Shown piece after piece: positions 1 through 11,027 of a stretch of 11,190 nt of DNA. The notes beneath the pieces are model-generated. The model had not been told where the DNA came from and did no database searches. It saw only the letters and a program-made list of their open reading frames with translations. The position numbers and the translations under genes were made by a program. The DNA is from Candidatus Hydrogenedentota bacterium (GTDB taxonomy: Bacteria; JBFMHD01), in the NCBI GenBank assembly GCA_040752395.1, contig JBFMHD010000037.1, positions 5,404-16,593 of the forward strand, in the 5' to 3' direction. Within the stretch, counting starts at the first letter, position 1. Each line of letters opens with the position of its first letter.

Positions 1-78
1 ATTAAAAGATACGGCAAGGAAGTGTATATTTTCGCTTTCTTTACTTTTAACTTTTGACTTTTTACTTTTAACTTGTCA

Positions 79-145
79 TAGGAGTTAGAAGTTAGGAGTT
101 CGTAATAATAGCTCCGAGCTCCGAACTTTTTCGAAGGAGTCAACA
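79..145 (+). promoter_or_regulatory. Repeated leader element: (GGAGTTA)n ... (GCTCCGA)n hairpin, then a T-run and GAAGGAG Shine-Dalgarno. Copy A sits upstream of a 29-aa sORF
   Basis: AGTTCG(97-102) pairs with CGAACT(122-127), with G-U extensions. TTTTT(128-132) and AGGAG(135-139) follow. Near-identical to 1873-1941. Confidence 0.4.
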
Positions 146-235
146 TGAGCGCGTTTGCGCTCTACACTATTGGGTTCTTGGGTTCTTGCGTTATTGCGTT
201 CTACACAAAGGATGAAAAACTAAAGATGATATGAA
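146..235 (+). CDS. Candidate small ORF (29 aa, hydrophobic: MSAFALYTIGFLGSCVIAFYTKDEKLKMI)
   Basis: ATG lies 6 nt after GAAGGAG, the same leader as the downstream genes. The ORF overlaps a GAGCGC-gttt-GCGCTC hairpin and the GGGTTCTT octamer repeats, so it may be fortuitous. Confidence 0.15.
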
Positions 236-455
236 AAGAGTCACAAGTCGCAAGTCGTGAGTCAAAACAGGACTCAGGACTCAAGACTCAAGACTTTTCA
301 GCCGGCTCCGGGCCTCGGGCTCCAGCCGGCTGTAGTCCGTAGCCTGTAGCCTGTAGCCTGTACTGATACCTCTTACTTCTTCCGTTATCTTGCTTCTTGC
401 TTCTTGCTTCTACTTGATATTATTATAGTTACAATGTTTTTCGAAGGAGAGCCCC
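200..455 (+). repeat. Mosaic intergenic repeat cassette, copy 1. It is a chain of heptamer tandem tracts, then a GC-rich core, then the ATTATTAkAGTTACA-GTTTTTC-AGGAG tail
   Basis: Heptamer tracts: (GTCRYRA)x3, (AGGACTC/AAGACTC)x4, the GGCTCCGGGCCTCGGGCTCCAGCCGGCTG core, (TAGCCTG)x4 and (CTTGCTT)x3. Homologous to 6122-6305 and 10787-11027, with different tandem unit counts. Confidence 0.7.
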
Positions 456-1941: not shown

Positions 1942-3282
1942 GTGATGGAATACTATATGGTAGAGAAAAAAAGAGATTTAATTGATATAATTAAAGAAGC
2001 AGGGGTTGTGGGCGCTGGCGGTGCTGGATTCCCTACACATATTAAATACAGCACAGAGGTTGAATATGTAATAGCAAATGGTGCCGAGTGCGAACCACTT
2101 CTACGTGTCGATCAACAATTAATGGATAAATATGCAAATGAGATAATACAGGCGTTACTTGCTGTAAAAGAAAGAGTAAAAGCAAAAGAAGCTATGGTGG
2201 GATTAAAATCTAAATATAAAGATGCTATTCGCTCCCTTAAAAAAGCTTCAAAAGATAGAGTAAGATTACATCTTCTTGAGAATGTGTATCCTGCCGGCGA
2301 TGAACATATTCTTCTTTATGATATGACAAAAAGAATCGTTCCAGAAGGTGGCATACCATTGCAGGTCGGCGCTGTTGTCTCTAATGTTGCCACACTTCTG
2401 TGGGTATATGAAGCAATGAATGGTAAACCTGTTACTGATAGGTGGCTGACAGTAACAGGTGAGGTTAATAAACCACAGACTATAAAGGTTCCGATTGGTA
2501 CCACAGTCAGAGATGTGCTGGAGTTTTGTGGCAGAGTAAAGATAAAAGATTTTAAAGTTATTGTTGGTGGACCAATAATGGGGGGTCTGGCTGAGAGTAT
2601 AGATCAAGGGATATTAAAGACTACAAGCGCCATTATTGTTTTACCAAAAGACCATTATGCTGTGTCTTACAAATATTTTGATTTAAATCTACATATCAAA
2701 ACGTCTAAAGCAGCGTGTTGTCAGTGTACATTCTGCACCAGTATTTGTCCGCGCAATTTAATAGGTCATTCAATAGAGCCTCATAAAATAATGAGGGGGA
2801 TATCATTTGGTGTTAATACAGCGGTCAAGGATGCTACGTTAGCTTTTTTATGTTGTGAATGCCAGTTGTGTTATTTCGCCTGTCCGATGAATTTAGCACC
2901 AGGAAGAATTAATGCTCTATTAAAACAGGAATTGACAAAAAAAGGCATAAAGAATCCGCATAATTTGAAACATAACAGGGCCCATATAATAAGAGAATAC
3001 AGGCTTCAACCTCTTAAAAGATTGATTGTTAAACTCGGGTTAACAGACTATGATGTTGATGCTCCTATATCTGATGAAACTTTTTTGCCAAAAAGGGTAA
3101 AAATATCATTGAAACAACATTTTGGCAAAAGTGCTGTTTGTGTGGTAAAAGAAGGGGCTAAAATTAAAAGAGGCGATGTTATAGGTGAAGCTGCTGAGGG
3201 TATATCAGCACGGGTTCATAGCTCTATAGATGGAATTGTAAAGAGTACACAGGGTGATGAGGTTATAATAAGTAGTGGATAA
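1942..3282 (+). CDS. PduS/RnfC-family flavoprotein with two [4Fe-4S] ferredoxin motifs
   Basis: AGVVGAGGAGFPTHIKY and NGAECEP motifs (RnfC/Nqo1-like NADH/FMN domain). Two CxxCxxCxxxCP motifs (CCQCTFCTSICP, CCECQLCYFACP). C-terminal barrel-sandwich-like segment. Start is ambiguous: GTG 1942, ATG 1945 or ATG 1957. Confidence 0.85.
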   Translation: MMEYYMVEKKRDLIDIIKEAGVVGAGGAGFPTHIKYSTEVEYVIANGAECEPLLRVDQQLMDKYANEIIQALLAVKERVKAKEAMVGLKSKYKDAIRSLKKASKDRVRLHLLENVYPAGDEHILLYDMTKRIVPEGGIPLQVGAVVSNVATLLWVYEAMNGKPVTDRWLTVTGEVNKPQTIKVPIGTTVRDVLEFCGRVKIKDFKVIVGGPIMGGLAESIDQGILKTTSAIIVLPKDHYAVSYKYFDLNLHIKTSKAACCQCTFCTSICPRNLIGHSIEPHKIMRGISFGVNTAVKDATLAFLCCECQLCYFACPMNLAPGRINALLKQELTKKGIKNPHNLKHNRAHIIREYRLQPLKRLIVKLGLTDYDVDAPISDETFLPKRVKISLKQHFGKSAVCVVKEGAKIKRGDVIGEAAEGISARVHSSIDGIVKSTQGDEVIISSG

Positions 3283-3298
3283 TCCATTGGTTATAGTT

Positions 3299-3326
3299 AG
3301 AAGCAAGAGGCAAGAAGCAAGATAAC
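3299..3326 (+). repeat. AGAAGCAAGAGGCAAGAAGCAAGATAAC tract, an inverted copy of 384-411
   Basis: Reverse complement of 384-411 with one mismatch. Related tracts at 6128-6150 and 10789-10800. Confidence 0.7.
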
Positions 3327-3361: not shown

Positions 3362-3910
3362 ATGGAACAGGCTTTAGGGTTACTCGAGACAACGAGTGTC
3401 GCGTTAGGTGTTCAGGGTTGTGATGCGATGCTGAAATCAGGTAATGTTATATTGTTGGAGTCACGACCCACGTGTCCGGGTAAGCACTTTACATTAATTT
3501 CAGGTGAGGTCGGTGCTGTAAGAACAGCTATCGCAGCTGGTGAATTAGCTGCCTTCCCATCTGTGGTTCAGACAATGATTATCCCGAATGTTCACCCTTG
3601 TGTTATACCTGCGTTTACAGGTTCTAATATAGTAGAAGAGATAGAGGCTTTAGGTGTGATTGAGACCTATTCTTTAGCAGCCTGTGTTGAGATGGCTGAT
3701 GCAGCAGTAAAAGCTGCTGAAATTAAACTTATTGAAGTGCGATTAGGTTCAGGGCTTGCTGGTAAGTCATTTATATATTTAACAGGTACGGTGGGAGCTG
3801 TGAGGTCTGCTGTTTCTGCTTGTTTATCGCTTGAACATCATAAAGGATTGGTTCACTCAAGTATCATTATACCTTCACCGCATCCTGATTTAATCAAAGC
3901 GATTTTATAA
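3362..3910 (+). CDS. Tandem-BMC-domain shell protein (BMC-T), PduT-like, with the conserved Fe-S ligand Cys38
   Basis: Two BMC (PF00936-like) repeats (ALGLLET...GEVGAVRTAI and ALGVIETYSLAA...GTVGAVRSAV). The PTCPGKHF motif aligns with PduT TICPGKF. The Cys38 codon is tgt at 3473-3475. Confidence 0.88.
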   Translation: MEQALGLLETTSVALGVQGCDAMLKSGNVILLESRPTCPGKHFTLISGEVGAVRTAIAAGELAAFPSVVQTMIIPNVHPCVIPAFTGSNIVEEIEALGVIETYSLAACVEMADAAVKAAEIKLIEVRLGSGLAGKSFIYLTGTVGAVRSAVSACLSLEHHKGLVHSSIIIPSPHPDLIKAIL

Positions 3911-3932
3911 GAATGTCAGTCGACATTCTTTT
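3911..3932 (+). terminator. Intrinsic terminator-like hairpin GAATGTC-agtc-GACATTC followed by TTTT
   Basis: 7-bp perfect stem, 4-nt loop, T-run at 3929-3932, immediately after the pduT-like stop codon. Confidence 0.55.
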
Positions 3933-3971
3933 GGATACGGAACGATATCAGCTTTGCAGGATTAAGGAGTT

Positions 3972-4214
3972 ATGGATAAAGAATATATAGCTTCTGTGAT
4001 AACAGAAGTTATAAATGAAGAGATAAAGATAAAAGATAAACTTACATATCCAGCGAAAGAAGTCGTAAGAGTTGATGAGGTTATCGATGAAAGGATTATA
4101 AGAGATTTAATAAAAGGGAAAGCAGATGTTGTGAAAATAAAAAGTAGCGCAAAGATTACACCGCTTGCAATGGATAGAATAAAAGAGTCTAAAATTAAAG
4201 TTGTGAGAACATAA
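3972..4214 (+). CDS. Small (80 aa) BMC-locus protein of unknown function, with SAF/beta-grasp-like resemblance
   Basis: Strong RBS (AAGGAG, 5 nt before the ATG). The segment IIRDLIKGKADVVKI...AKITPLAMDRIKESKIKVV resembles the SAF-domain pattern xDIxKGxxVxKY...IGxAxxDIxxGExV (as in UxaA_N, FlgA, CpaB). This resemblance comes from memory only. Confidence 0.6.
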   Translation: MDKEYIASVITEVINEEIKIKDKLTYPAKEVVRVDEVIDERIIRDLIKGKADVVKIKSSAKITPLAMDRIKESKIKVVRT

Positions 4215-4215
4215 C

Positions 4216-4509
4216 GTGTTTTTTGCAAAAGTGATAGGTAATGTAGTTGCAACAAAAAAAAACGAAAATCTAAAAGGAAGAAGATTACTTCTTGTTCAGC
4301 CTGTAGACGAAAATATGAAACCCAGGGGGGACCCTGTTATTGCACTTGATTGGCTTGGCACAGATGAAGATGAATTAGTTTTTATAGTTCAGGGGAGAGA
4401 AGCTGTATATGAGGAATCTATGAAAGTAATGATACCAGCTGATGCTGGTATATTTGGTATTATTGATTCAGTGGATACAAAAGATAAGAACCTTTATAGA
4501 AAGCATTAG
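4216..4509 (+). CDS. BMC vertex protein (BMC-P), EutN/PduN/CcmL family, copy 1
   Basis: MFFAKVIGNVVATKK... is the classic EutN N-terminus. 97 aa. GTG start directly follows the upstream TAA stop. Confidence 0.85.
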   Translation: MFFAKVIGNVVATKKNENLKGRRLLLVQPVDENMKPRGDPVIALDWLGTDEDELVFIVQGREAVYEESMKVMIPADAGIFGIIDSVDTKDKNLYRKH

Positions 4510-4522
4510 GCTCGGGGGATGT

Positions 4523-4798
4523 ATGATCCTTTGTAAAGTTGTTGGTGTGGTTGTATCAACACAAAAAAATAAAAAGTTCGAGGGTGTTAAAATTTTTGTT
4601 GTACAGCCGATTAATCCCTCAGGCGAACCTATAGGAAATACTTTAATCTCTGCAGAATATGAGAATGATGCAGGCATCGGAGATACTGTATTAGTATTTA
4701 CTAAAGGGAATGCATCAAGATTAGTTGTAAGGGACCTTTCTTCACCAGTAGATTATGCTATCTGTGGTATTGTTGACAGAATAGAGATGAGTCATTAG
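4523..4798 (+). CDS. BMC vertex protein (BMC-P), EutN/PduN family, copy 2
   Basis: MILCKVVGVVVSTQKN... 91 aa. GGGGGA RBS 5 nt upstream. The 4442 start given in the ORF track is an upstream read-through extension. Confidence 0.85.
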   Translation: MILCKVVGVVVSTQKNKKFEGVKIFVVQPINPSGEPIGNTLISAEYENDAGIGDTVLVFTKGNASRLVVRDLSSPVDYAICGIVDRIEMSH

Positions 4799-5753: not shown

Positions 5754-6050
5754 TCACATTCTACGTTTAACAAGATGCGGTACCTCACGTTTTAGTATGC
5801 CGTTTAAAATACCATAAAGAGCTCTCTCGATATTTGGACGGTCAGTATTTGGAGGCAACGTAAGATCAAGTTTAATACGCGCTGAATCAATCAACATATT
5901 GTGAACCTTAATACCCATAATAATTATGTTTCTTTCTAACTGTTTTCTAATCCGATGTTTTAATCCCTCTGAGAGCCGTGAACGGCTCGCACGATCAGGC
6001 ATACTAAATGAAAGCTTAAGCTCAATGTTAACCCTTCGAATTACTTGCAT
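5754..6050 (-). CDS. Small hypothetical protein with a weak RbfA-like (ribosome-binding factor A) pattern
   Basis: 98 aa. Immediately upstream and co-oriented with the CorA gene. The patterns MPDRASRSRLSEGLKHRIRKQLE and ERALYGILNGILKREVPHL loosely match the RbfA N- and C-terminal motifs. An internal ATG at 6002 is an alternative start. Confidence 0.4.
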   Translation of the reverse strand: MQVIRRVNIELKLSFSMPDRASRSRLSEGLKHRIRKQLERNIIIMGIKVHNMLIDSARIKLDLTLPPNTDRPNIERALYGILNGILKREVPHLVKRRM

Positions 6051-6121
6051 AAATAATATCTTAACATATATGAAAATATTGTCTATAATTTATTTGACAT
6101 AATTCCCTCGCTTATAGGTTG

Positions 6122-6305
6122 TAAGAAGTAAGAAGCAAGAGGCAAGAAGTAGATAATATGTTGGCTCCGGGCTTGGGGTTCCAGACTCCAGCCGGCTGTA
6201 GTCCGTAGCCTGAAGCCTGTAGCCCGAAGAGATGTTTTTTTAATTTTTCATAGTAGGAGGTTATCAGTAAACAGAAAACCGAAAACCAAACACCGAACTT
6301 AAGAA
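6122..6305 (+). repeat. Mosaic intergenic repeat cassette, copy 2 (partial)
   Basis: It contains AGAAGCAAGAGGCAAGAAG, the GGCTCCGGGCTTGGGG...CAGCCGGCTGTAGTCCGTAGCC core, a T-run plus AGGAGG, (AAACCGA)n and ACACCGAACTTAAGAA (6290-6305). The last box matches 11012-11027. Confidence 0.65.
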
Positions 6306-6367: not shown

Positions 6368-6811
6368 ATGAAAGTTATAACAGTTAATAAGAAAGCTGGG
6401 TTTAATTATCAAATATTTGAAAGGTTTGAAGCTGGTATAGTTCTTAAAGGTAGTGAGGTAAAATCAATAAGAGAAGGTAATATAAATTTAAAAGATGGTT
6501 ATTGTATAATGAAGGCAGATGAATTATATCTTATAAATGTGCATATATCAAGGTATAAGCCATCAGGAGTATTGAATCATGAACCTGAACGGGCACGAAA
6601 AATGCTCCTTCATAAAAGAGAATTAAAAAGATTGACAGGAAAGATCAATGAGAGAGGGTTAAGTATTATACCATTAAAGGTTTATATAAATCAAAAAGGC
6701 AGAATCAAAGTTGAGATAGGTTTAGCTAAGGGGAAAAGTAAGATTGATAAACGTGAGGATTTAAGAAAAAGAGCTATTGATAGAGAGATTGAGAGAGAGT
6801 TAAAGTATTGA
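6368..6811 (+). CDS. smpB: SsrA-binding protein SmpB
   Basis: 147 aa. KKAGFNYQIFERFEAGIVLKGSEVKSIREGNINLKDGY matches the SmpB signature. A basic C-terminal tail is present. The tmRNA gene follows on the same strand. Confidence 0.95.
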   Translation: MKVITVNKKAGFNYQIFERFEAGIVLKGSEVKSIREGNINLKDGYCIMKADELYLINVHISRYKPSGVLNHEPERARKMLLHKRELKRLTGKINERGLSIIPLKVYINQKGRIKVEIGLAKGKSKIDKREDLRKRAIDREIERELKY

Positions 6812-6850
6812 CGAATCTAAAGTATTATAGTAATATATAAAATTATAGGA

Positions 6851-6969
6851 GACAGAAGACAGAAGTTAAAAAGATACAAAGATTGAAAGATTCAAATGCA
6901 TTTTAACTTTTAATAGGAGGGTAAATAAATTTGCAATTTGCAATTTACAATGGAGCAAAGCGACAAGAA
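6851..6969 (+). repeat. Phase-coherent chain of heptamer tandem tracts upstream of the tmRNA
   Basis: (GACAGAA)x2, AAGATTG/AAAGATT, ATTTTAA/CTTTTAA, (AATTTGC)x3 and a GGAGCAAAGCGACA box (6952-6965). Confidence 0.6.
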
Positions 6970-6971
6970 AG

Positions 6972-7370
<399 letters not shown>

Positions 7371-8177: not shown

Positions 8178-8185
8178 TTTTTATT

Positions 8186-8420
8186 CAAGGGTTGAGGCAC
8201 TGCCAGAGAAGAATCTTATCTGCGGAATTTTTGCAATTCGTACAGAATTTTTGCTTTCGAGTCTGGCGTCTGAAGCATACGAATGGAGAATGGGTTGAGG
8301 CACTGCCTCATCCGTCTCTTTGCCAACAAAATTTCGCTTTTTGCATAGAGAATTCGCTTTTGCTGTATGGCATAGCAGATACCGAATGGTAGAATGGGTT
8401 GAGGCACTGCCTCATAATAC
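8186..8420. repeat. Three diverged ~104-bp tandem units, each carrying the palindrome TGAGGCA-c-TGCCTCA
   Basis: Palindromes at 8193-8207 (imperfect, right arm TGCCAGA), 8296-8310 and 8400-8414 (both perfect). Spacing is 103 and 104 bp. The units also share CGAATGG(T)AGAATGGG and GAATTTTTGC-like subrepeats. The period is not divisible by 3. Confidence 0.75.
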
Positions 8421-9033: not shown

Positions 9034-9602
9034 ATACTAAACCGGGGCAGATTATTTTAAGCAGTCTGTTTTTTATCTTTATTGGATATATAATTTACTG
9101 GGCGTTTTATTCAAAAATTGAAGAACCCAAAATCTTTAATAAAGCCATAGAAAAAAATGTTAAAAATTTAATTACAGGTGGTAAATATATTCGTGCATCA
9201 GAAGGTAAAATTCACTGGGAGATTACTGCAGATGAAACACAAGAAAAGGGCTCAGGCGAGATTAATTTAAAAAGAGTTTATTTAAAATTTTATGATATCG
9301 AGGCCGATACACCGATAATAGTAAATGCACTCGAGGCTATTTATAGCCCCAATAATAAAATCATTAAATTAAAAGATAATGTTGTTATAAAATACGGAGA
9401 TTTATTAATATTAACAGATGAACTTAATTATGAAGAAGAGAACGGATTTTTATTTAGTAAAAGTAATGTGGAGATAAGAGCCAATGAGAGCGTGATATAT
9501 GCCAGAGGATTGAAGGCTTATACAAGAGAAAAAAAATTGAAACTTTTTAATGTAAAAGGCAATTTAAGACCAGAAGATATAGAGGGGTTGAATAATTTAT
9601 GA
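9030..9602 (+). CDS. lptC: LPS export protein LptC
   Basis: 190 aa. N-terminal TM anchor. The C-terminal LKAYTREKKLKLFNVKGNLRPED matches the LptC end motif. ATGA overlap with the upstream gene. lptA and lptB follow. Confidence 0.78.
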   Translation: MNTKPGQIILSSLFFIFIGYIIYWAFYSKIEEPKIFNKAIEKNVKNLITGGKYIRASEGKIHWEITADETQEKGSGEINLKRVYLKFYDIEADTPIIVNALEAIYSPNNKIIKLKDNVVIKYGDLLILTDELNYEEENGFLFSKSNVEIRANESVIYARGLKAYTREKKLKLFNVKGNLRPEDIEGLNNL

Positions 9603-10081
9603 GAAAATTACTGCTGATATCAGTTGTATTTTTATTGTTAGGTAATACCGGGATAGCTTTAGAGGTAGAGAAGATACAGATCAATCATTCCGATGAGATG
9701 ATTTACGACGGGATTAAACATACGCTGGAATATACCGGCAGCGTGGATGTTACAAGCGACCAGATGGAATTAAAAGGTGAGAGAGTCATACTCTATTTTA
9801 ATGAGAAAGAAGATGAGATAATAAAAGCAGAGGCGTTCGGTAATGTATATATGAAAAAGGATGAATTCACTGCTGAAGCAGGTAAAGTAATTTATGAAAC
9901 CCAAAACGGGAAAATTACATTAGAAGAAAAACCAGTTGTTTATGGCGAGGGGAAAAAACTTAAGGCAGATTTTATAATCTACTTTGTTAAAGAGAAACGG
10001 ATTGATGCAAAGGGTAATGTATCGGGATTCTTTATACCACAGAAAAAAAAGAAGAAAGAAGATGAGTCAACTAAAAGCTGA
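9599..10081 (+). CDS. lptA: LPS transport periplasmic protein LptA (OstA-like)
   Basis: 160 aa. Signal peptide. OstA_N-like beta-jellyroll pattern. Lys-rich C-terminal tail. Position in the lptC-A-B operon. Confidence 0.75.
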   Translation: MRKLLLISVVFLLLGNTGIALEVEKIQINHSDEMIYDGIKHTLEYTGSVDVTSDQMELKGERVILYFNEKEDEIIKAEAFGNVYMKKDEFTAEAGKVIYETQNGKITLEEKPVVYGEGKKLKADFIIYFVKEKRIDAKGNVSGFFIPQKKKKKEDESTKS

Positions 10082-10786: not shown

Positions 10787-11027
10787 TAGAAGCAAGAGGC
10801 ACAAAGGCACAGAGGCACAAAGTATGAAAAGAGTCGTGAGTCAAAACAGGACTCGAGACTCAAGACTCAAGACTTTTTAGCAGGCTCCGGGCTTCGGGCT
10901 CCAGCCGGCTGTAGTCCGTAGCCCGTAGCCTGTACCCCGAATTATTAGAGTTACAGCGTTTTTCAGAGGAGCGAAGCGACAATTAGGTTATCGGTGAACT
11001 GACCACCTAACACCGAACTTAAGAAAC
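10787..11027 (+). repeat. Mosaic intergenic repeat cassette, copy 3
   Basis: AGAAGCAAGAGGCAC, (GAGGCAC/AAGGCAC)x3, ATGAAAAGAGTC...(GACTCAA)n...GGCTCCGGGCTTCGGGCTCCAGCCGGCTGTAGTCCGTAGCC, ATTATTAGAGTTACAGCGTTTTTCAGAGGAG, GGAGCGAAGCGACA and ACACCGAACTTAAGAA. Collinear with copy 1 but with fewer tandem units. Confidence 0.7.

Follow-up and report, generated by a model that had tools for sequence, protein, structure and literature searches.

We suggest that the short gene at positions 3972-4214 (+), which lies between two shell genes of a microcompartment (BMC) cluster, encodes a minimal structural adaptor, in which an encapsulation-peptide-type helix, a linker and a PduM/EutQ-like module would together tether the enzyme core to the shell; we consider this reading moderately probable. 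Judged from sequence comparisons, the 80-aa product (here called the mini protein) is best read as having the layout of PduM and the TIGR02536 proteins (helix, middle, module) minus the middle domain. As a minimal variant it belongs to a class that is already known, if poorly understood, and does not establish a new one. Throughout, the window is the whole stretch of 11,190 nucleotides of DNA that was analysed.

A genuine gene between shell genes

The mini PduM-like protein gene runs from an ATG at 3972 through 80 codons to a TAA at 4212-4214, and appears in the list of open reading frames of the window as well as in the NCBI record of this Candidatus Hydrogenedentota MAG, as hypothetical protein AB1765_03600 (MEW5692363.1). 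Using the other genes of the window as a reference, its in-frame codon-usage log-odds is 0.43 bit/codon, compared to 0.23-0.35 for the 11 neighbouring genes, making it the most gene-like sequence in the window; its other two frames score -1.3 and -0.9 bit/codon, and an antisense ORF of 97 codons 0.02. By chance, 80 or more open codons in a row would arise with a p of about 0.0015 at 36% G+C. Codon usage and open-frame statistics thus support its coding status, and together with a homologue described below they show that the ORF is a genuine gene, beyond chance. A preliminary description had placed a real ORF between shell genes here, and this was borne out: the gene is flanked by BMC-T and BMC-P. 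The description had also credited it with a strong Shine-Dalgarno sequence. The AAGGAG at 3964-3969 (+), read from the sequence, is indeed a good core, but it stands only 2 nt 5' of the ATG, a short and atypical spacing.

Only 1 nt separates the stop of the ORF (4214) from the GTG start of BMC-P (4216), suggesting translational coupling of the two genes. On the other side, RNA folding of 3905-3975 gives a 9-bp hairpin followed by UUU (3909-3930, +) between the BMC-T stop and the ORF; the hairpin and its U-run end 40 nt 5' of the ORF, immediately after the BMC-T stop codon. This is possibly an attenuator or an mRNA-stability element, and it could reduce the expression of low-abundance genes downstream; the segment 3905-3975 as a whole is no more stable than its own shuffles (z -1.4).

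The microcompartment cluster and the rest of the window

The genes on the same strand are, in order, aldehyde dehydrogenase, PduS-like, BMC-T, the 80-codon ORF, BMC-P and BMC-P again, after which a convergent CorA gene is found. The acylating aldehyde dehydrogenase (463-1863, +; PRK15398, E 2e-194) is a likely cargo and starts with an encapsulation-peptide-like helix, SQMQKIVEKVIERL, with a hydrophobic moment of 0.70 (shuffle p 0.007). The PduS/RnfC-like flavin and Fe-S protein that follows (1942-3282, +; Complex1_51K, SLBB, Fer4_17 and RnfC_N) has no recognisable terminal encapsulation peptide. The PduT-like tandem-domain BMC-T (3362-3910, +; PF00936 twice, E 4.7e-43; TIGR02526) has the PduT-type Cys38 and is a candidate docking partner of the mini protein, with the first BMC-P, a pentamer protein (4216-4509, +; PF03319, E 3e-25), as the alternative; the second BMC-P lies at 4523-4798 (+; PF03319, E 3.5e-21). 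By gene order, the nearest loci are of the sugar-phosphate type.

There is no BMC-H gene within the window, which weakens the case for a full shell in this organism. Positions 1-462, 5' of the aldehyde dehydrogenase, are non-coding except for one ORF of 29 codons, and a truncated gene running on upstream was ruled out on these grounds. Satellite or fragmented BMC loci are categories in the 2021 catalogue (PMC8217296), and given the lack of BMC-H and the non-coding 5' end, the cluster may be one of these. The 29-codon ORF itself (145-234, +) is hydrophobic, MSAFALYTIGFLGSCVIAFYTKDEKLKMI. It is preceded at 127-139 by 13 nt, TTTTTCGAAGGAG, that recur identically at 437-449, before the start of the aldehyde dehydrogenase; it may encode a small membrane or leader peptide, or it may represent a duplicated ribosome-binding region.

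Tandem heptanucleotide repeats in 2-5 copies fill nearly every longer intergenic spacer of the window (43-362, 1875-1928, 3299-3322, 6121-6297, 6850-6951 and 10797-10939). Some units recur between spacers: GACTCAA is found at 271-295 and 10850-10874, and TAGGAGT at 79-100 and 1875-1889. They are reminiscent of the STRR heptamers of heterocystous cyanobacteria, although the genome here is a putative member of the Hydrogenedentota. A unit of ~103-104 nt with the core GGGTTGAGGCACTGCC is present in three copies, two of them identical over 25 nt, in the spacer that follows the amidase gene (8184-8415). The end of the BMC cluster region is marked by ordinary housekeeping genes, smpB (6368-6811) and then tmRNA (6972-7333; Rfam 177 bits, tag peptide ANTELALAA), while an ORF of 98 aa upstream of CorA (5754-6050, -) has only a faint match to a tape-measure family (E 0.016).

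A single homologue in a second genome

The mini protein is extremely rare. A full phmmer scan of 1.84 billion representative proteins returned one true homologue, P0003, and two further matches, P0002 and P0004, which were discarded as repeat-protein artefacts; with either the mini protein or the two-sequence profile as query, a word-indexed search of 5.8 billion clustered proteins found only the two mini proteins. Genome and metagenome contigs scanned with the mini-protein profile and a BMC-T profile gave no confirmed further locus.

P0003 has 83 aa and is 35% identical to the 80-aa protein across its full length. It is encoded on L001, a Logan contig of 1.3 kb that ends within the BMC-T gene and covers nothing 5' of it. 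The start of P0003 lies 5 nt 3' of this BMC-T, so both known mini genes (2/2) directly follow a PduT-like BMC-T. The BMC-T of L001 is 80% identical to that of the window, while the next-nearest BMC-T proteins reach at most 53%. The pairing is therefore conserved, and its smaller partner, with 35% identity between the mini proteins, changes far more quickly than the shell protein does. Both mini genes have an intact reading frame, in genomes of strongly different base composition. The ORF is therefore conserved within a BMC shell cluster, as expected from the preliminary description, in the one comparison that a family of two known members provides.

In the position 3' of BMC-T, the remaining related loci that we fetched have either a BMC-H or an unrelated gene. 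BMC-H fills this position in L002, L003, L008, L009 and L010, and the order of secondary structure elements in the mini protein is superficially similar, so that one could imagine a highly degenerate BMC-H. We regard this as scarcely conceivable and effectively refuted: there is no PF00936 Pfam match, and the hhalign probability is 0.04%.

N-terminal helix and linker

AlphaFold2 models of the mini protein, computed from one and from two sequences (mean pLDDT 67), begin with a helix of moderate amphipathicity at residues 3-18 (3978-4025, +; pLDDT about 50), YIASVITEVINEEI. Its hydrophobic residues are spaced at i, i+3, i+4, i+7 and i+8, a pattern common to the N-termini of the aldehyde dehydrogenase of the window, PduM, and the PTAC, DERA-like and TIGR02536-like proteins of related loci. 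I6, I10, V13, E16 and E17 are invariant between the mini protein and P0003, and I6, I10 and V13 make up the hydrophobic face of the helix. When the mini N-terminus was compared by hhalign to 15 N-terminal peptides of BMC proteins, the score of 15.0 was reached by 4 of 200 shuffles. The hydrophobic moment is 0.72 for P0003 (p 0.004) and 0.50 for the window protein, the latter not significant (shuffle p 0.17). The likeness of the N-terminus to an encapsulation peptide is thus supported, but not strongly for the window sequence alone. Several features of an encapsulation peptide come together here, namely the helix at 3-18, a linker predicted with low confidence by AlphaFold2 (residues 15-27), the BMC locus context and the peptide similarity.

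Residues 19-28 (4026-4055, +) form a Lys/Asp-rich linker containing K-L-(T/S)-(Y/F)-P, with a pLDDT below 50 over residues 15-27; K23, L24 and P27 are invariant between the window protein and P0003. Residues 17-23 (EIKIKDK), where the helix passes into the Lys-rich linker, are encoded by three copies of AGATAAA at 4021-4040 (found with TRF). The presence of this repeat within the coding sequence suggests that the length of the linker can change by slippage.

The C-terminal module

The rest of the protein, residues 29-80 (4056-4211, +), is a small alpha/beta domain with an ITPLA motif, recognised by hhalign and by hmmscan against TIGR02536, which we propose as the shell-docking module. In the AlphaFold2 model the order is strand 29-32, helix 40-48, strand 51-56, helix 64-73 and strand 76-79, with pLDDT values of 71-84. 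The ITPLA motif (residues 62-66, nt 4155-4169) is invariant with P0003. Two beta-beta-alpha-like units had been described for this protein; the model does have two helix-containing half-units, but they are of the order strand-helix-strand.

That description had further likened the two units to SAF, beta-grasp or SLBB domains, the last as found in RnfC/PduS. The likeness came from visual resemblance of the two strand-helix units, with no tool result behind it, and it did not hold up: there is no SAF (PF08666) or SLBB (PF10531) Pfam match at E<=1, and hhalign against the SLBB-containing PduS of the window finds nothing. A SAF/beta-grasp (SLBB-like) domain protein therefore appears to us a very improbable reading.

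Instead, the sole curated match for both mini proteins is TIGR02536, on whose last ~60 positions they both fall. The window protein matches positions 142-206 with E 0.06, and P0003 has E 0.0017; the window protein's 13 bits compare to a cut-off of 152.6 for the full family. Profile comparisons by hhalign are stronger. The two-sequence mini profile matches the C-termini of four TIGR02536-like proteins with E 3.3e-5, and a pooled module alignment of 10-12 sequences (TIGR02536-like, PduM, EutQ, EutT and a PTAC fusion) with a probability of 93%, E 2.7e-7 to 4.4e-7 and a score of 35-36. In 500 column shuffles of the latter comparison the mean score was about 9 and the maxima 14.8-18.7, while the reversed sequence scored 8. 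Even the window sequence alone scores 27.0 against the pooled alignment (E 2.5e-5). Against five PduM sequences the mini profile aligns in register over columns 119-161 of 163 (E 0.0084), and against EutQ alone the match is weak (E 0.037 over 10 columns). Because the direct EutQ match is weak and that to PduM alone is modest, a functional link to EutQ H1/H2 is transitive. Taken together, the profiles indicate that the module of residues 29-80 is homologous to the C-termini of PduM and TIGR02536 proteins and to the N-termini of EutQ and EutT.

This relation is visible to profile methods only: BLASTP of the ORF against the 266-aa TIGR02536-like protein of L002 gives no alignment. As a whole, the mini protein has no Pfam match at E<=1, nothing in PHROGs or PADLOC, and in NCBIfam only the weak match to the tail of TIGR02536; Pfam has no model for the isolated module. 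The PduM and PDU_like models do not match the window protein or P0003 at E<=1, and the EutQ cupin models (PF06249/PRK15457) do not match the mini protein, which ends at residue 80. A PDB sequence search with the ORF found nothing; with the L002 relative it gave only a chance match (E 0.84). The earlier statement that the protein belongs to no familiar accessory family, being neither BMC-H, BMC-P nor a cupin EutQ, is thus correct for the protein as a whole. Its proposal as a new BMC accessory was overstated: no curated family covers the whole protein, but the C-terminal module already occurs in PduM, TIGR02536 proteins, EutQ and EutT, and the N-terminus also looks like the encapsulation peptides of its relatives.

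Larger proteins that carry the module

We fetched loci around BMC-T homologues that share the core order of the window, aldehyde dehydrogenase, PduS and BMC-T. Four of them encode TIGR02536-like proteins of 200-270 aa (L002 4289-5089, L007 1128-1898, L009 6222-6890 and L010 6293-6901), with matches to TIGR02536 of E down to 2e-10 and a flavoprotein-like middle domain (PF02441, E down to 1.6e-9). Their C-termini read ...ITxxDI...(I/V)TPLAR...I.I. In three of the four (L002, L009 and L010), as in PduM, the protein starts with an encapsulation-peptide-like helix and ends with the module. In L010, a helix at residues 183-198, ITPLARDRASEKGIEI, gives a sub-threshold match to PF02817 (E3-binding, peripheral subunit-binding; E 0.0014-0.0055) and may be a convergent docking helix. 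L002 encodes another protein of 161 aa between RpiB and DERA (9444-9929) that has an encapsulation-peptide-like N-terminus, no family match and no module.

The same module can be followed into better known proteins, using PduM sequences from five enterobacterial records and EutQ and EutT from E. coli. The curated PduM models match the C-termini of the TIGR02536-like proteins at positions 114-159 of about 160 (E 0.004-0.008), and positions 3-45 of the curated EutQ model match the same C-terminal segment (E 0.015). Profile against profile, the TIGR02536-like proteins match PduM with E 8e-5 over 112 columns and EutQ residues 3-46 with E 8.3e-5, while PduM and EutQ match each other only weakly. 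According to the module HMM, the PduL-type phosphotransacylase of L008 (7459-8364) carries the module as a C-terminal extension. There the module follows a Cys-rich linker (CKGTCLTGACTCGNH), and a BMC-P gene lies directly 3'. The N-terminus of EutT is a weak match to the module HMM (E 0.044); in E. coli eutT (L004 13503-14306, -) the N-terminal ~50 residues, FITEAWL...RLTPSARELLESRHLRIKFI, align in register with the module. There is thus provisional evidence that a single small module recurs at the ends of PduM, the TIGR02536 proteins, EutQ, EutT and some PTACs. In the literature searched, we found no statement of one terminal module common to PduM, TIGR02536, EutQ, EutT and PTACs.

The module-bearing gene often has the same neighbour. 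It lies directly 5' of a BMC-P gene in pduM-pduN, in L007, L008, L009 and L010, and in the window with its gap of 1 nt. The mini protein might then be a vertex-associated factor whose module binds the BMC-P pentamer and not the facet proteins. This is improbable in our view, since the gene downstream of P0003 in L001 is a PD-(D/E)XK-like nuclease and no BMC-P, and published work locates EutQ at the EutL/EutM interface.

The other neighbour invites a different explanation, a dedicated accessory of the PduS/PduT electron-transfer pair that might, for example, hold PduS at the Fe-S BMC-T or control the pore of the latter, instead of serving as a general tether between core and shell. Consistent with this, the order in the window is PduS, BMC-T, ORF; the mini gene directly follows a PduT-like BMC-T in both known cases; the PduS of the window is without a recognisable terminal peptide of its own; and for a TIGR02536 protein of Listeria, stacking on a BMC-T trimer, that of EutL, has been predicted (PMC13181095). 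Against it, PduS-BMC-T pairs occur without such a gene in L002, L003 and L005-L010, and the module is also found on EutQ, EutT, PduM and PTAC, which are unrelated to PduS. We therefore hold this role to be rather unlikely, if the least so of the alternatives considered here. In L005 (8688-10552) and L006 (8164-10055), the PduS-like and BMC-T pair is accompanied by no other BMC gene in the DNA fetched; one of these two genomes is an Acidobacteriota MAG.

A candidate tether between core and shell

The members of the module family differ in what they add to the module. TIGR02536 ('eut_hyp') is the closest sequence relative of the mini C-terminal module and has the same helix-first, module-last layout; its proteins occur in eut and in sugar-phosphate-type BMC loci, with the locus type of the window in the order aldehyde dehydrogenase, PduS, BMC-T, and contain a Rossmann/flavoprotein-like middle domain that the mini protein lacks. 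PduM (TIGR04493/PRK15428/PF15953) has an N-terminal amphipathic signal helix, to which the predicted N-terminal helix of the mini protein is a candidate counterpart (moment in the window protein 0.50, at a non-significant p of 0.17), and its C-terminal module of ~45 residues, with an (I/V)T(P/A)xA motif in an xxITAxAR-like context, aligns in register with that of the mini protein. Both pduM and the mini gene stand directly 5' of BMC-P. PduM is however about 160 aa long, with a middle region of ~90 residues where the mini protein has only its linker of ~10 residues, and the locus of the window, unlike pdu, is not a propanediol locus.

An architecture equal to that of larger relatives without their middle domain could also be that of a decaying remnant, a TIGR02536/PduM-like gene from which an internal deletion removed the middle domain, leaving a product that has no function or just travels into the compartment as a passenger. 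The extreme rarity of the family, two sequences in 1.8 and 5.8 billion proteins searched, fits such an origin, as does the slippage-prone AGATAAA repeat that encodes part of the linker. What speaks against decay is that both modules and the KL(T/S)(Y/F)P linker were kept in two genomes of differing base composition at 35% protein identity, that the two lengths are nearly equal (80 and 83 aa) with intact frames, and that no other gene of the window has a more gene-like codon usage. Retention of both modules across two divergent genomes, together with the strong codon usage, leads us to disfavour the remnant and to consider it unlikely.

Within the module family, experiments have assigned a role only to H1/H2 of EutQ (residues ~1-46), which belong to it by the transitive profile match. 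Salmonella EutQ(1-99) bridges shell and cargo, with H1/H2 binding the EutL/EutM interface and H3/H4 the cargo peptides; when residues 9-99 are deleted, shell and cargo separate (PMC12487888). Pull-down of EutM also needs the EutQ N-terminus (PMC4827028). The cargo-binding helices of EutQ adjoin the module, which makes for a two-part tether, albeit in reversed order compared to the mini protein, with the module first and the helices second. EutQ also carries a C-terminal cupin/acetate-kinase domain through which it dimerises, and the mini protein has no such domain. For PduM, residues 1-23 are a core-targeting signal, and loss of the protein leads to partial separation of core and shell; the 2025 paper reports no known homology of PduM outside Pdu compartments (PMC12108088). 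CcmN, CsoS2 and the PduB N-terminus provide an analogy in function only, in that one part binds cargo and another the shell (PMC12487888).

Based on shell binding by EutQ H1/H2 and core targeting by the PduM N-terminus, a minimal shell-to-core tether is the best reading of the mini protein. On the cargo side, for instance at the aldehyde dehydrogenase of the cluster, the N-terminal helix would join the encapsulation peptides in their bundle or condensate. On the shell side, the module would dock from within, using either the PduT-like BMC-T trimer or a BMC-T/BMC-H or BMC-P interface as its site. During assembly the protein would in this way hold the enzyme core to the shell, a role demonstrated for EutQ(1-99) and suggested in the case of PduM. 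We infer these binding partners and the tethering role from the relatives described above. Should the idea of a tether fail, the mini protein gene would still be a correctly annotated small accessory gene from a rare lineage.

The attachment of core to shell is a question under active study, so far pursued one system at a time (EutQ in 2025; PduM and PduB in 2025). We speculate, with less confidence than we have in the tether itself, that the ITPxA module of ~45 residues is a general, portable shell dock on otherwise unrelated proteins of Pdu, Eut and sugar-phosphate-type compartments, of which the 80-aa protein, an encapsulation peptide plus a dock, would be the natural minimal form. In that case it would be the smallest known core-shell linker, and PduM would be explained by the same mechanism as EutQ. 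A common dock would provide a testable mechanism for PduM and for the uncharacterised TIGR02536 proteins, would explain the N-terminal extensions of EutT and of some PTACs, and would make the 80-residue 'peptide plus dock' a compact part for the engineering of cargo loading.
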